41,015 nucleotides of DNA, from the IMG/VR virus record IMGVR_UViG_2537561977_000014, one strand, 5' to 3'. Below the pieces are notes generated by a model that saw only the letters and a list, made by a program, of their open reading frames with translations, searched no databases and was not told the origin of the DNA. Source of the DNA: a virus. Its lineage: Duplodnaviria > Heunggongvirae > Uroviricota > Caudoviricetes. Positions 1,075 to 39,477 of this stretch are shown one piece after another. The position numbers and the translations under genes are program-made. Position 1 is the stretch's first letter. Every line of letters starts with the position of its first letter.

Positions 1075-1287
1075 TCACGAGGACTGAAGTTTCTCGCAAT
1101 TAAAATTTATCAGTTTTACTTTCTGCTCTCTGGAAACGCCTGCTTCTTTTTCCCCTGAGAGCATTTTTTCGCATTCTGATTTCGTTAGTTTTGTCTTTGA
1201 GTATCTTGTCCAGCTGGTAGGAGATCCACCTTCCTTTTCAATAGTGGCTGTAATTTTATACATGAACACCTCCATTAATATTTTCAA
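1075..1287 (-). CDS. Hypothetical small phage protein (70 aa)
   Basis: ORF in operon orientation between ATPase gene and xis; no recognisable motif. Confidence 0.4.
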   Translation of the reverse strand: MKILMEVFMYKITATIEKEGGSPTSWTRYSKTKLTKSECEKMLSGEKEAGVSREQKVKLINFNCEKLQSS

Positions 1288-2918: not shown

Positions 2919-4630
2919 ATCATCAGCTTTTTCCGTTTACTTCGGCTCTTCTTCCTGTGCTTCATCTGGTTTTTTTCGTCAAAAGTTTCCTGATAAGTTG
3001 CGTCTCCCATCACCGCGCCACAGTCAGGGCAGTTATCCTCGCCAGTCTGATTGCAGGGTGTTCCCTCCTCCGGTTCGCTGTTCTGGTGCTGTTTATCTTC
3101 AGTCTGTCGCACTTCATTTTCCGTTTTTTTGACTTCATTTGAGGAGATATGATGACCGGGAATCCATTTCGAATCATTCGGGTCGCTAATCCCTTCAACA
3201 AATTCTCCGCGAGAGGCAGCCAGTAATTTGTCTGCATCGACAGGATTTTTGGGCGGAATGTTTTTCTGGGCTTCATGGAGTTCTGTCCGCAGTTTCTGAT
3301 ATTTCGCATCAACAGCATTTACCTGTGACTGAGTATCCAGCGGCTGCGTGTCCTGATGATGTTCAGTTGCATCCGGTTCCACTGTTTCAGCCGTTGCCTG
3401 TTCATCTGCCATTGCGCAAGATGGTTGCGGTTTTTCTTCATCATCCTGTTTTCCTTCTTCTGTTACACGTTGCGGCATCGGGGCAGAGGAGCGACCGCAG
3501 GCAATATCCACGATTTCCGGATCAGGGTTGGCATGATCGGTTTCAGTCAGTACCTTGTTCAGATATTCAGTGACGTGCGCGGGGATGACCTCGATACCAA
3601 TCGGTGCTTCTTTCACTAACGCAACCACGATGGCGCGGGAATAATCCATCCCGCCAGGCATGGTGATGAATTTGTCGCGGAAAACAGAAAAGGGCGGTTT
3701 ATTTTCAGCGATAATTTCCTCGACACGTTTAGCGTGTGCCGGATGAAGGTTATAAATGTCCACGTCCATTGAACGAGCCAGTACGCCAGTGGCTACGTCG
3801 CGCGCCAGTGACGTCAGATCGTGAACGAAACCTTCGCCGCGATCGGTGAGGTTCCCGCCGCCAGCATTAGCACCGGAAGCCGTGCGAGTGATACGCGAAA
3901 CACGATTTCCTTTCATCCACTCTTTTGTCAGCAGACCGCGATCGGTGTAGTTGGCATCCAGATATGCTTCGAAAAAAGCAGTCATCAGTCCCAGATTTGA
4001 ATTGCCAGGATTAGGGAAAACTTTGTCAGTATCACGCACGAGTTTGTGGAGGTCGCGAATCTCCAGCGGGTCGAGCAGACTGGTTTTATGCGAAACAGCC
4101 AGAGCAGTAACAGCCGGTAGTTCTTCATCCCGAGCAATGTGTAATGCCTGGAGTTCGTCGCGTGAAACGTGCGTTACCGGTTTTTCGCTGCCGTGTTGCG
4201 CAAGCCAACGAATGGGCAGTTCCTGACCGGAAACTGGCAGGAGCATGTTCTCCTCAATTTCTGTCATGTCTTCGCCGTTGACGTTGGTATTGTCAGTGCT
4301 GGCTGGTTTGTCCTGAACAGAGGGAGAAGATGCGATAAATACCATTGTGATGCCATCTTCCCCGCCTTTTTCGTAACGGTTGCAGAATTCCGTATCAAAC
4401 ACGCCTTCTGGTGGGAGGTCATCAACAACGGGCAAATTGACGCGAACAGGTTTTTTAAAGTCATCTTCATCGTAGCCAGCATCGTCAATCGCAACAGCAC
4501 CACGGGAGATGGCAATGGATAATTTTTTCGCTTCAGCCCAGTAAAAACCGCCTTTAATACCGAGGCGTTTTCTTACTTTGTCATTTTTTGCTTCGTAATA
4601 CAGTGGGTAAACTTGTTTATCGGTGCTCAT
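2828..4630 (-). CDS. Large acidic early-left-operon protein (~600 aa), function unknown; occupies the recE position of Rac-like prophages
   Basis: Long uninterrupted ORF; start chosen at ATG 4630 (MSTDKQ..), preceded by GAGG ~10 nt upstream; Cys cluster CPDC near C-terminus; no nuclease motif recognised by eye. Confidence 0.6.
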
Positions 4631-5872: not shown

Positions 5873-6140
5873 TTTAGTGGCCTCCTTAACTGTTTTAGTC
5901 TGCGATTACCAGTTAGTAGCTGGTGATCGGGTGTCAACTAGAGCCAGTTAAGAAGCTCCGGGCATATTCCCCTTACGGGTATTGTATTACGCCTCTCCAC
6001 CCGATCTTTGTACGGATGTGCCGTATTTCAGGCATAAAAAGCCGCAAGGCTATCGGGTGCGGATGACCGCTTAACTGTTTCTAGTGCGATCATCTTGCAA
6101 CAATGCAGGTTGCTTTGTCAATATCCCGGATATCAGAAAG

Positions 6141-12565: not shown

Positions 12566-13252
12566 ATGACCCCAATAAACATATTTATGACAGTTGCTGA
12601 TTTCAAACGGCCCAAATTGGAGCTCCCAAACGGGGCAAACAAACTACTACTGCACTCTTGCTGTGCTCCATGTTCCGGTGAGGTGATGGAGGCGCTTCAG
12701 GCCTCGGGAATCGACTACACCATCTTTTTCTACAACCCGAACATTCATCCTCAGAAAGAGTATTTAATTCGTAAGGATGAGAATATTCGCTTTGCTGAAC
12801 AACACGGCGTGCCGTTTATTGATGCTGATTACGACACAGACAACTGGTTTGAACGAGCCAAAGGAATGGAATGGGAGCCCGAACGAGGGATCCGTTGCAC
12901 CATGTGTTTTGACATGCGTTTTGAGCGGACAGCGCTGTACGCCGCTGAAAATGGTTTCAGTGTGATCAGCAGTTCACTGGGCATTTCACGCTGGAAAAAT
13001 ATGCAGCAGGTTAACGACTGTGGGCGGCGAGCCGTCGCGCATTATCCGGGCATGGTGTACTGGGATTATAACTGGCGCAAGCAGGGCGGCTCGTCCCGTA
13101 TGATTGAAATCAGCAAGCGCGAAAAATTCTATCAGCAGGAATATTGTGGCTGTGTGTATTCTCTGCGCGATACCAATCTACACCGCAAATCTCAGGGACG
13201 CCCTCTTATCAAAATTGGTCAACTCCACTACGGTAAAGAAGAGAAGGAGTGA
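12566..13252 (+). CDS. Epoxyqueuosine reductase QueH-like (DUF208)
   Basis: Conserved [11 protein letters not shown] motif plus CTMCFDMR and EYCGCV Cys clusters typical of QueH/DUF208. Confidence 0.7.
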
Positions 13253-13479
13253 TTTTATGGGGCACCTTTCTGATTGATTTCATATTGGCGAGGTAAGTAG
13301 AATGACTGCGGGTGCTTGAGGCTATCTGCTTCAGGCATGAACACCAAAAGGCAGATAGAGAAAAGCCCCAGTTAACATTACGCGTCCGGCAAGACGCTTA
13401 ACATTAATCTGAGGCCAATTTCATGCTTTGCACATGTAGGTTAGCCTCTTACATGCCGAAAGGCAAGGAGAAGCAGGCT

Positions 13480-13635
13480 ATGAAGCAGCAAAAGGCGATG
13501 TTAATCGCCCTGATCGTCATCTGTTTAACCGTCATAGTGACGGCACTGGTAACGAGGAAAGACCTCTGTGAGGTACGAATCCGAACCGGCCAGACGGAGG
13601 TCGCTGTCTTCGTAGACTACGAATCCAGGAAGTAA
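13480..13635 (+). CDS. hok: Hok/Gef-family type I toxin (HokD/RelF-like)
   Basis: MKQQKAMLIALIVICLTVIVTALVTRKDLCEVRIRTGQTEVAVF.. matches the Hok family; GC-rich fold-back hairpins and terminator in 13640-13760. Confidence 0.8.
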   Translation: MKQQKAMLIALIVICLTVIVTALVTRKDLCEVRIRTGQTEVAVFVDYESRK

Positions 13636-13884
13636 GAGTGACCGGGCGGGGAGCTGATCCCATCCCCGCCCACCTCTGATGTGTCAGGCATCCTCAACGC
13701 ACCCGCACTTAACCCGCCCATCGCTGTGATCTCTCAGCGTTTCGGCGGGTTTTTTGTTGTTTATTTCCGGTGAATTTGATTCGCGCACCTTCGCAGATAG
13801 AATCGACTCACTTAAGTAGCGCGCAGGGAGAAGAGGGATGGACCCCGAACAGGGGAGAGCTATTTATCTGGAAGGATTCTGAAG

Positions 13885-14172
13885 ATGAAAATCGAAGAAT
13901 TGCGTGAAATTTTTAGTGAAAATGGCCTCTATGCTGTGCGCGTTGAGAATGGAGCGATTGTCAGCCATTGCCGCATTAGATGTTTGCAATCTCAACAAAG
14001 GAAGAGCGGTGCTGTGTTATTTTATTTTTGTAATGGACTTCTGACGGACGGTTTTATTTTGCGTGAGGACGAATTTGTCACATCATTACGGGTTTTGAAA
14101 GAGATTGGTTTTAAGGCTGGTTTTCTGCTTTTGCTGAAGAATAAACTCATCTACAATCTTGAGCAGGATTGA
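13885..14172 (+). CDS. Hypothetical protein (95 aa), rem-position ORF
   Basis: ORF between hok and DUF1367 gene, same order as Qin hokD-rem-ydfU. Confidence 0.45.
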   Translation: MKIEELREIFSENGLYAVRVENGAIVSHCRIRCLQSQQRKSGAVLFYFCNGLLTDGFILREDEFVTSLRVLKEIGFKAGFLLLLKNKLIYNLEQD

Positions 14173-15839: not shown

Positions 15840-15916
15840 GGCCCTTTAGCTCAGTTGGTCAGAGCGAGCGACTCATAATCGCCAGGTCGCTGGTTCAAGT
15901 CCAGCAAGGGCCACCA
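15840..15916 (+). tRNA. tRNA with CAT anticodon, ileX/ileZ-like (tRNA-Ile2, or Met by anticodon)
   Basis: Cloverleaf folded by hand: acceptor GGCCCTT/AAGGGCC, anticodon loop CTCATAA, T-loop TTCAAGT, 3' CCA. Confidence 0.85.
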
Positions 15917-15917
15917 A

Positions 15918-15994
15918 CCACCACTAGCTCATCCGGATAGAGCATCAACCTTCTAAGTTGACGGTGCGAGGTTCGAGTCCTCGGTGGTGGGCCA
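15918..15994 (+). tRNA. tRNA-Arg (TCT)
   Basis: Acceptor CCACCAC/GTGGTGG, anticodon stem TCAAC/GTTGA, loop CTTCTAA, T-loop TTCGAGT, CCA. Confidence 0.85.
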
Positions 15995-15996
15995 GC

Positions 15997-16072
<76 letters not shown>

Positions 16073-16075
16073 TAT

Positions 16076-16150
<75 letters not shown>

Positions 16151-39461: not shown

Positions 39462-39477
39462 CTGTAAAAAACGATAC
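39462..39477 (-). promoter_or_regulatory. MxiE-box-like motif with downstream TATAAT (39437-39442) in the ipaH promoter region
   Basis: Minus-strand GTATCGTTTTTTACAG versus remembered consensus GTATCGTTTTTTTANAG; ~120 nt upstream of the ipaH ATG; TATAAT ~20 nt downstream of the box. Confidence 0.55.

Follow-up and report, generated by a model that had tools for sequence, protein, structure and literature searches.

A probable complete hok/mok/sok cassette of the hokD/hokW subgroup in a Rac-like lambdoid prophage

Genomic setting and toxin gene

The window, i.e. the whole stretch of 41,015 nucleotides that was analysed (IMG/VR record IMGVR_UViG_2537561977_000014), is a Rac-like lambdoid prophage. 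Its genes follow the order int/xis, recE, cI/cro-like, ydaT, replication genes, queH, hok and a rem homolog, followed by genes for DUF1367, DUF1364 and DUF1133 (Q-like), four tRNAs, the lysis genes and terminase. The hok cassette is located between queH and the rem homolog, in the nin-like region. The first-pass annotation had assigned the toxin to the position of hokD in the Qin prophage, without relBE upstream. The neighbouring genes agree with this assignment: QueH is encoded upstream and, on the other side of hok, the downstream ORF at 13885-14172 shows 68% identity to Rem of K-12, whose gene neighbours hokD in Qin. The queH gene is also found upstream of hok in strains O18 and FDAARGOS_943/944.

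The toxin gene (13480..13635, plus strand, stop codon at 13633-13635) encodes a Hok protein of 51 aa which, from the ATG at 13480, reads MKQQKAMLIALIVICLTVIVTALVTRKDLCEVRIRTGQTEVAVFVDYESRK. Hok matches the Pfam family PF01848 HOK_GEF with 81 bits and an E-value of 4.3e-23 (cut-off 22) and the PHROG 251 family, 'MokW-like host killing', with an E-value of 1.3e-32. It is 90% identical to K-12 HokD, residues 1 to 44 being the same in both proteins, including Cys15 and Cys30. The NCBIfam matches were under their cut-offs, and neither Hok nor Mok matched any of the PADLOC models. The hok ORF is intact in 45 out of 45 close relatives, with 5, 3 and 13 variable sites at codon positions 1, 2 and 3, respectively, and the ORF list reveals no frameshift or premature stop in either mok or hok. 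At Tyr47, the motif UACG (13618..13621, plus strand) constitutes a candidate site for TadA A-to-I editing, which would convert Tyr to Cys. In K-12, the hokC, hokD and hokE mRNAs are A-to-I edited so as to encode Cys at the position equivalent to HokB Cys46 (PMC12214031). Tyr47 is invariant across the 15 Hok protein variants.

The span initially proposed for the locus, 13423-13760, corresponds to a real hok locus, but its left edge was too narrow and the cassette reaches about 150 nt further upstream. Position 13423 is the upstream mok-like ATG, the hok ATG being listed at 13480, and it is the region 13274-13422 that contains the promoter, tac and ucb as well as the greater part of the Sok gene.

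Close relatives of the cassette are widespread. More than 2000 of the 5426 complete E. coli genomes exhibit a match over at least 80% of the query, and more than 575 viral contigs of IMG/VR carry close relatives. An identical locus (100% identity) in E. coli FDAARGOS_943/944 is named hokD by PGAP/RefSeq, a name which is also given to copies that are about 91% identical. Loci with 99.6% identity were found in S. flexneri SFBU1023 and E. coli ECMA0423. These two strains harbour, respectively, three and two co-resident hokD-type loci, all of which have different alleles of the Sok-target loop described below.

The mok-hok transcript

A consensus scan detected a hok/mok mRNA promoter, TTGATT-18-TAGAAT, at 13274..13303 on the plus strand, with 9 matches out of 12. 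Its -10 element TAGAAT is conserved in relatives and its -35 region differs; compared with strain O18, 10 bp are missing from the window, a private deletion by which the hok-promoter -35 of most relatives is replaced. The full-length mok-hok mRNA is predicted to extend over 13310..13755 (plus strand). Its 5' end was positioned by homology at GGGUGC, the 5' ends of hokC, hokB, hokE, 933W hokW and R1 hok all aligning at 13310, GGGUGCUUGAGG, and its 3' end corresponds to the terminator. An alternative 3' end around 13706 would result if the transcript were trimmed to fbi as in R1, so that its length would be comprised between about 395 and 446 nt. The Rfam family RF01794 is matched at 13310-13485 with 117 bits (gathering score 59). 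As this match runs along the hok-sense strand and stops at the hok AUG, it speaks for the hok leader and does not bear directly on the antisense RNA. The 446-nt transcript 13310-13755 has a predicted folding energy of -189.6 kcal/mol (z=-8.4, 100 shuffles), and its 5' end is base-paired with the 3' UTR. Together with the Pfam match and the Rfam leader match, this fold corroborates the 51-aa Hok/Gef toxin in a hok-type mRNA reported by the first-pass annotation.

The mok frame (13423..13635, plus strand) comprises 70 codons in the ORF list and is in frame with hok, with which it has a common stop. A Shine-Dalgarno sequence GAGG is located at 13411..13414 (plus strand), 8 nt upstream of the mok ATG, and is equivalent to G105-G108 of R1 (PMC9841398). 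The Shine-Dalgarno sequence of hok, AAGGAG, lies at 13465..13470 (plus strand), 9 nt upstream of the hok ATG. The Mok protein of the window and the MokW annotated in 933W have 96% identity, and in K-12, too, mokC and hokC are in the same frame. Among the relatives the mok frame varies: 38 loci have it in frame with hok (one of them with ACG for ATG), 8 have it in the +1 frame, and in 3 to 4 it stops at the hok ATG. The fact that this frame is not conserved fits the published view according to which the translation of mok matters, not the Mok product (PMC9841398).

Downstream of hok, a GC-rich hairpin (13644..13671, plus strand, -20.9 kcal/mol, z=-2.9) is the probable protector of the 3' end of a truncated, translatable mRNA. 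The GC hairpin in the equivalent position of R1 ends at about nt 360 of the 361-nt truncated mRNA (PMC9841398). The exact pattern of the window's GC hairpin was not retrieved in a scan of species-representative genomes because of a single C/T difference present in the 99.6%-identical loci. An intrinsic terminator follows at 13711..13762 (plus strand), made of an 8-bp stem, an inner 5-bp stem and a U-run (-22.8 kcal/mol and z=-5.0 over 13711-13751). The inner stem arises from a 23-nt insertion, shared in the 50-locus alignment described below by loci L008 and L010 only and also present in the near-identical L101/L102. No terminator was called by the consensus scan of 13150-13950, whose loop limit of 8 nt is exceeded by the loop of this terminator. 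The GC hairpin and terminator that had been noticed by eye downstream of the toxin are both recovered as folds, at 13644-13671 and 13711-13751, respectively.

The antisense Sok RNA

An antisense RNA had been expected near the 5' end of the locus, without delimitation, and a search of 13250-13500 for a sok-like promoter and a mok frame had been proposed. Besides the mok frame at 13423, this region contains a Sok promoter, TTGCCT-17-TAACCT, read on the minus strand at 13438..13466 (-35 at 13466-13461, -10 at 13443-13438). Its position and spacing are the same as those of the R1 (TTGCGC-17-TATCCT), hokB (TTGCCG-17-TAAGAT) and hokE (TTGCCT-17-TACCAT) promoters. It remained under the threshold of the consensus promoter scan, its -10 element TAACCT fitting the consensus at 3 positions out of 6.

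The predicted Sok RNA is encoded on the minus strand at 13355..13431 and has a length of 71-77 nt, its ends being transferred by alignment. The annotated ends of K-12 sokC, sokB and sokE correspond to 13431->13355/6 and those of the annotated 933W sokW to 13431->13361; the 5' end at 13431 is thus agreed upon by four independent annotations. As judged from the sequence, the expected antisense RNA is therefore present and can now be delimited to 13431->13355/61. Predicted Sok comprises a single-stranded 5' tail of 9-15 nt, a long terminator hairpin (13416-13365) and a U-rich tail. The 77-nt form folds with -30.2 kcal/mol (z=-5.0), leaving free a 9-nt 5' tail which begins GCAAAGCAU. This tail is complementary to the mok start codon region and to the loop beyond, GCAAAG facing the loop CUUUGCA, and no second copy of the tail sequence was found in the window. 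Whereas R1 Sok is 64 nt long (PMC1635323), the Sok RNA of the window is longer because of an 18-nt hairpin extension common to all hokD/hokW-type loci. An exact search for the extended Sok hairpin matched 14 stretches in the species-representative genomes, mostly from Escherichia and Shigella, with one from Kluyvera and a few from short or MAG contigs.

Regulatory elements and predicted energy switch

The translational activator element tac (GGGUGCUUGAGG, 13310..13321, plus strand) pairs with the fold-back inhibition element fbi (CCUCAACGCACCC, 13692..13704, plus strand) in the full-length fold, forming 6+6 bp with one bulged C, and with ucb in the open fold. The ucb element, an anti-Shine-Dalgarno box (AAGCCCCAG, 13363..13371, plus strand), pairs either with the mok Shine-Dalgarno region (closed form) or with tac (open form); in the full-length fold its positions 13365-71 are paired with 13409-15. 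A segment of the 3' UTR (13679..13691, plus strand) pairs in the full-length MFE structure with the mok start and Sok target (13423-13435). Similarly, the GGA of the hok Shine-Dalgarno sequence (13467-69) is paired with 13624-26 and the hok AUG region (13478-85) with 13608-15.

In the refolded mRNA, the Sok-target hairpin (13411..13448, plus strand, -13.6 kcal/mol) is closed by GAGGC and by dcb, GCCUC at 13444-13448, and its loop CUUUGCA (13426-13432) carries the YUNR motif UUUG. In the MFE structures of 3'-truncated RNAs, 13328..13338 (plus strand) acts as the partner of tac, forming with 13312-13322 a hairpin of 11 bp. This hairpin matches the metastable 5' hairpin described for R1 (PMC9841398).

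To estimate the cost of the open form, we enforced the pairing of tac 13314-16 with 13364-66 and of GAGGC 13411-15 with GCCUC 13444-48 and compared the resulting energy with that of the unconstrained MFE. The cost was 19.2 kcal/mol for the full-length mRNA of the window and 1.6 kcal/mol for the mRNA truncated at 13674. The R1 control gave 18.1 kcal/mol for the 398-nt form and 2.0 kcal/mol for the truncated 361-nt form. In equilibrium folding, the accessibility of the mok AUG increased from 0.08 to 0.53 upon truncation, while the probability of the mok Shine-Dalgarno being unpaired was 0.25 in both full-length and truncated RNAs. As it was likewise unchanged in the R1 control, this probability was set aside as a measure of the switch and does not count against it.

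Conservation and covariation of the folds

The two structures were evaluated on an alignment of 50 loci, comprising 44 unique IMG/VR loci together with strain O18, a Salmonella plasmid, an Enterobacter plasmid, R1 and K-12 hokB. The R1-type plasmid loci L088 and L089, which contain IS elements inside the leader, were left out and L092 was used in their place. Over the 50 loci, 90.5% of the cells were paired for the full-length structure, compared with 34-42% when partners were slid, and 91.2% for the open leader structure, compared with 33-50%, the values of 90.5% and 91.2% being inflated by the derivation of both structures from the window itself. Changes on both sides of a pair are a more telling measure: they were observed in 34 pairs of the full-length structure vs 16-28 with slid partners.

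Taken separately, tac/ucb was paired in 99.7% of the cells (open fold, 50 loci), GAGGC/GCCUC in 49-50 of the 50 loci and tac/fbi in 95.8% of the cells (50 loci). The helices formed by 13423-35 and 13679-91 were paired at 82-92% in relatives and exhibited both-sided changes, and those covering the hok Shine-Dalgarno sequence and AUG at 96-99%. Homology among the loci stops just past fbi. Since MAFFT misaligned the fbi of R1, the Enterobacter plasmid and hokB, compensations between tac and fbi were read by hand from the sequences. In the window, tac GGGUGCUUGAGG faces fbi CCUCAA-C-GCACCC. The pairing is compensated in K-12 hokB (tac GGGUGCCUGAGA, fbi UCUCA-U-GGCACCC), in the Enterobacter plasmid (tac GGCGCUUG, fbi CAAGCGCC) and in R1 (tac GGCGCUU, fbi AAGCGCC).

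Within the 45 close relatives, column entropy was 0 for tac, which is invariant, 0 for dcb, 0.04 for the mok Shine-Dalgarno and 0.12 for fbi. The most variable segment was the target loop, with 0.97 bits. The CUUUGCA loop of the window is one of at least 21 target alleles, and all of the 21 target-hairpin alleles that were folded form the hairpin, with energies of -10.8 to -14.6 kcal/mol for 20 alleles and of -6.2 kcal/mol for that of K-12 hokB. We tentatively suggest, as an idea with rather less than an even chance of being right, that the Sok-recognition module (target loop, upper stem and Sok 5' tail) could be a hypervariable specificity cassette under diversifying selection. If so, lambdoid prophages residing in the same host would each possess a hok/sok pair of their own, which would not cross-react with the others.

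Comparison with known systems

The hokW/mokW/sokW locus of phage 933W (AF125520.1), also present in VT2-Sakai, is 92.5% identical to the window at the nucleotide level over 13306-13714. Both loci exhibit a 70-aa Mok in frame with Hok, the tac, ucb, dcb and fbi elements and the 18-nt extension of the Sok hairpin. They differ in the Sok-target loop (CUUUGCA in the window, CUGAACA in 933W), in the C-terminus of Hok (ESRK and ESEK, respectively), in their genomic neighbours and in the sequence past fbi, where no common terminator is found. Phage Rac (MN652886.1) has the same gene order as the window, namely hok - rem - DUF1367 (irsA) - DUF1364 (ybcO) - DUF1133 (Q), but its mok is annotated in another frame. 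Most of the RefSeq hokD copies (about 91% identity) differ from the window in that they lack the 10-bp promoter deletion and the 23-nt terminator insertion, possess a GC hairpin shorter by 5 nt and encode Hok proteins ending in FTAYEPEE or FVDYESEK.

The cassette and R1 hok/sok have in common the order of their elements, the end-pairing of tac with fbi, the covering of the mok Shine-Dalgarno by ucb, the GAGGC/GCCUC target hairpin with a YUNR loop, the GC hairpin preceding fbi and the predicted energy switch between full-length and truncated forms. On the other hand, the two Hok proteins are divergent, mok is in the +1 frame in R1 and in frame with hok in the window, Sok has 64 nt in R1 vs a predicted 71-77 nt in the window, and the one locus is carried by a plasmid, the other by a prophage.

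The hokD (relF) gene of the K-12 prophage Qin resembles the locus of the window by its downstream rem homolog and its 3' UTR, fbi included. Its homology to the window begins at the hok Shine-Dalgarno; it has relBE upstream and, with unrelated sequence in place of the leader, is devoid of the promoter, of tac and ucb, of the mok start, of the target hairpin and of the Sok gene, whereas the window retains the full leader. With queH rather than relBE upstream and a full leader, the locus is not a remnant of the K-12 hokD (relF) type, and this candidate was ruled out. More generally, one may ask whether the cassette is a decaying relic, in which the toxin ORF would have survived the loss of regulation and antitoxin. 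Such relics do occur in the same family (K-12 Qin, L012/L013), and the promoter and terminator of the window bear private indels. Yet each defining element is present and correctly paired, the leader absent from K-12 is complete here, and mok and hok are free of frameshifts and stops. The lack of an antisense transcript together with a degraded hok mRNA structure had been put forward in the first-pass annotation as the sign of a relic; the predicted fold of the mRNA has a z-score of -8.4. We see no sign of decay and reject the relic on sequence grounds as a very improbable reading.

The region from about 13274 to 13762 is best read as a type I toxin-antitoxin cassette, a complete hok/mok/sok system belonging to the prophage hokD/hokW subgroup, with a probability that we estimate at roughly 0.85. 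That the cassette 13274-13762 is an architecturally intact member of the hok/sok family appears, from its sequence, nearly certain.

Proposed mechanism and activity in the host

The mechanism proposed for the cassette follows the literature on R1-type hok/sok (PMC9841398, PMC1635323). Transcription from the sigma-70-type promoter would yield an mRNA of about 395-446 nt starting around 13310. In the full-length mRNA, tac would be paired to fbi, ucb would cover the mok Shine-Dalgarno, the 3' UTR would cover the mok start and Sok target, and the hok Shine-Dalgarno and AUG would be buried by pairing with the end of the coding region. By homology with R1, this form is expected to be stable and inert. 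Slow exonucleolytic trimming of the 3' end, back to the GC hairpin 13644-13671, would then remove fbi, and the trimmed leader would be able to refold into the tac/ucb stem and the target hairpin 13411-13448, exposing the mok Shine-Dalgarno and the YUNR loop. As long as Sok is present, it would bind the refolded mRNA and the duplex would be destroyed by RNase III. Once the short-lived Sok is no longer made, following loss of the prophage or a transcription shut-off caused for instance by phage attack, mok would be translated. The coupled translation of hok would produce the 51-aa inner-membrane peptide and the membrane potential would collapse. Because mok is in frame with hok in this cassette, translation initiated at 13423 would in addition give rise to a Hok of 70 aa with an N-terminal extension.

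We consider that the chances are slightly in favour of the cassette being active in its own host as R1 hok/sok is. It could instead be intact but physiologically silent, a neutral passenger which is transcribed but whose mRNA is never activated or whose Sok is always in excess. It would then be comparable to the chromosomal hok loci that Pedersen and Gerdes tested, and leader-less or IS-disrupted copies (K-12 hokD, L012/L013, L088/L089) are tolerated in many genomes. Moreover, intact hokA of E. coli C, hokB of K-12 and hokC of ECOR24 reportedly mediated neither post-segregational killing nor activation by rifampicin, as a recent preprint summarises (bioRxiv 10.1101/2025.08.07.668861). A silent passenger is harder to reconcile with the strong conservation of the regulatory elements, with a hok ORF intact in all close relatives and varying mainly at third codon positions, and with the compensatory changes that maintain base-pairing. 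The R1-like energy switch between full-length and truncated forms also speaks against it, as does the approximately four-fold enrichment of hok genes in prophages (bioRxiv 10.1101/2025.08.07.668861). Taken together, conservation of the elements, compensations, switch and prophage enrichment argue for a continuing selection on function, and we regard the silent passenger as unlikely, while still a serious contender.

The activity favoured above could serve mainly as an anti-phage module (abortive infection or exclusion) rather than for prophage addiction, Hok killing the cell when Sok decays after a shut-off by superinfection. Mechanistically, this proposal is the same as the best explanation and only the trigger differs. 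The enrichment of hok in prophages would suit it, and the same preprint cites a phage-defence role for Hok (reference 15 therein; bioRxiv 10.1101/2025.08.07.668861). However, the PADLOC models gave no match, hok is not reported there as enriched near defence systems (bioRxiv 10.1101/2025.08.07.668861), and no sequence feature separates this role from addiction. A mainly anti-phage role therefore strikes us as rather improbable.

Significance of the locus

The type of system, its subgroup and the exact locus are already present in public annotation and in the literature, and the picture of the hok/sok family is unchanged by this locus. What is new here are the coordinates given to mok, Sok, tac, ucb, dcb and fbi, which had lacked annotation. 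In RefSeq the sole feature annotated at this locus is the 'hokD' CDS, with no entry for the mok frame, for Sok or for the cis-regulatory RNA elements, so that the main value of the present analysis is one of annotation. The name hokD is itself misleading, as it implies the regulator-less remnant of K-12. The locus provides a ready example of an intact prophage cassette of the hokD type. It could be used to ask whether prophage hok/sok systems are active, in addiction or in abortive infection, and whether the variable Sok-target alleles are orthogonal.

The leader and frame of the hok cassette

The Rfam family 'sok antitoxin (CssrC)' matched the window on the hok-sense strand, at 13310-13485(+), with the end of its consensus corresponding to the hok AUG. 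This family is a model of the hok mRNA leader and not of the antisense Sok RNA. A match to it alone is neither proof of an antitoxin gene nor an indicator of strand. We also compared the mok and hok frames among close relatives, using an alignment of 50 hok loci (alignment A3, drawn from IMG/VR, O18, Salmonella and Enterobacter plasmids, R1 and K-12 hokB). Mok was in frame with hok in 38 loci and in the +1 frame in 8, while 3-4 loci presented a stop at the hok ATG. A single locus of the alignment, L040, has its mok ATG replaced by ACG.

Damaged hok copies elsewhere

Two IMG/VR prophage contigs, L012 and L013, carry at about 2950-3321 a hok gene which is 99% identical to the window from 13431 on and is preceded by unrelated sequence. 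Judged from this sequence comparison, the copy is a relic having neither leader nor Sok; it differs from K-12 hokD, the leader-less copy of the Qin prophage, in that its breakpoint lies elsewhere, within the target loop. Two R1-type hok/sok plasmid loci picked at random (L088 and L089) were found to contain IS elements (IS150 and ISKpn28) inside the hok leader, the leader elements tac and ucb having been removed, a situation reminiscent of the K-12 hok loci inactivated by IS.

Candidate editing site in hok

TadA A-to-I editing leading to a Tyr to Cys change has been reported for the K-12 hokC, hokD and hokE mRNAs (PMC12214031). In the window, a UACG motif is present at Tyr47 of Hok (13618-13621(+)) and constitutes a candidate site for the same editing, with Tyr47 predicted to become Cys. 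In the full-length fold, the hok SD and the hok AUG are each buried in a helix, and the motif occupies an internal loop separating these helices.

Neighbouring features and other Rfam matches

Directly past the hok terminator, at 13776-13803(+), lies a promoter-like site, TTGATT-16-TAGAAT, the second of its kind, with hexamers identical to those of the hok promoter. It is located upstream of the ORF 13885-14172, which encodes a Rem homolog (68% identity to K-12 Rem). Further along, the Q-like gene is followed by a cluster of four phage tRNA genes (15840-16150(+)) and then by the lysis genes. The four tRNA genes are CAT (assigned to Met by ARAGORN and to Ile by RefSeq), Arg-TCT, Thr-TGT and Gly-TCC. 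The prophage of E. coli FDAARGOS_943 (L001) is near-identical to the window except that, at L001 8510-9207, an IS1 separates its DUF1133 gene from the tRNA cluster; the window has no IS1 at this place.

Two other Rfam families scored over their gathering scores, CssrB at 39470-39652(+) with 151.6 bits and sRNA-Xcc1 at 5917-6006(-) with 67.4 bits. In addition, RalA (RF02694) was matched over its full length at 1079-1257(+) with 203.9 bits. RalA is the antitoxin sRNA of the RalR/RalA type I system of the Rac prophage. Antisense to it, the annotation of a near-identical genome places a DUF1187 CDS; the prophage therefore contains a second type I toxin-antitoxin pair, unrelated to hok/sok.

Target-hairpin alleles and co-resident cassettes

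No segment of the cassette varies more than the target hairpin (columns 118-157 of A3, corresponding to 13411-13448 in the window), for which the 50 loci present 21 distinct alleles. The column entropy reaches 0.97 bits in its loop, and the variable part is bordered on both sides by the invariant GAGGC/GCCUC. Several hokD-type cassettes can be co-resident in one genome: S. flexneri SFBU1023 (L102, L105 and L106) harbours the loop alleles CUUUGCA, CUGAACA and CUCACAA, and E. coli ECMA0423 two cassettes (L099 and L101) with CUUUGCA and CUCACAA. The locus of the window is 99.6% identical to L101 and L102. In these two genomes, the only ones on which the comparison bears, the presence of differing loop alleles within a single genome is consistent with selection against cross-talk.
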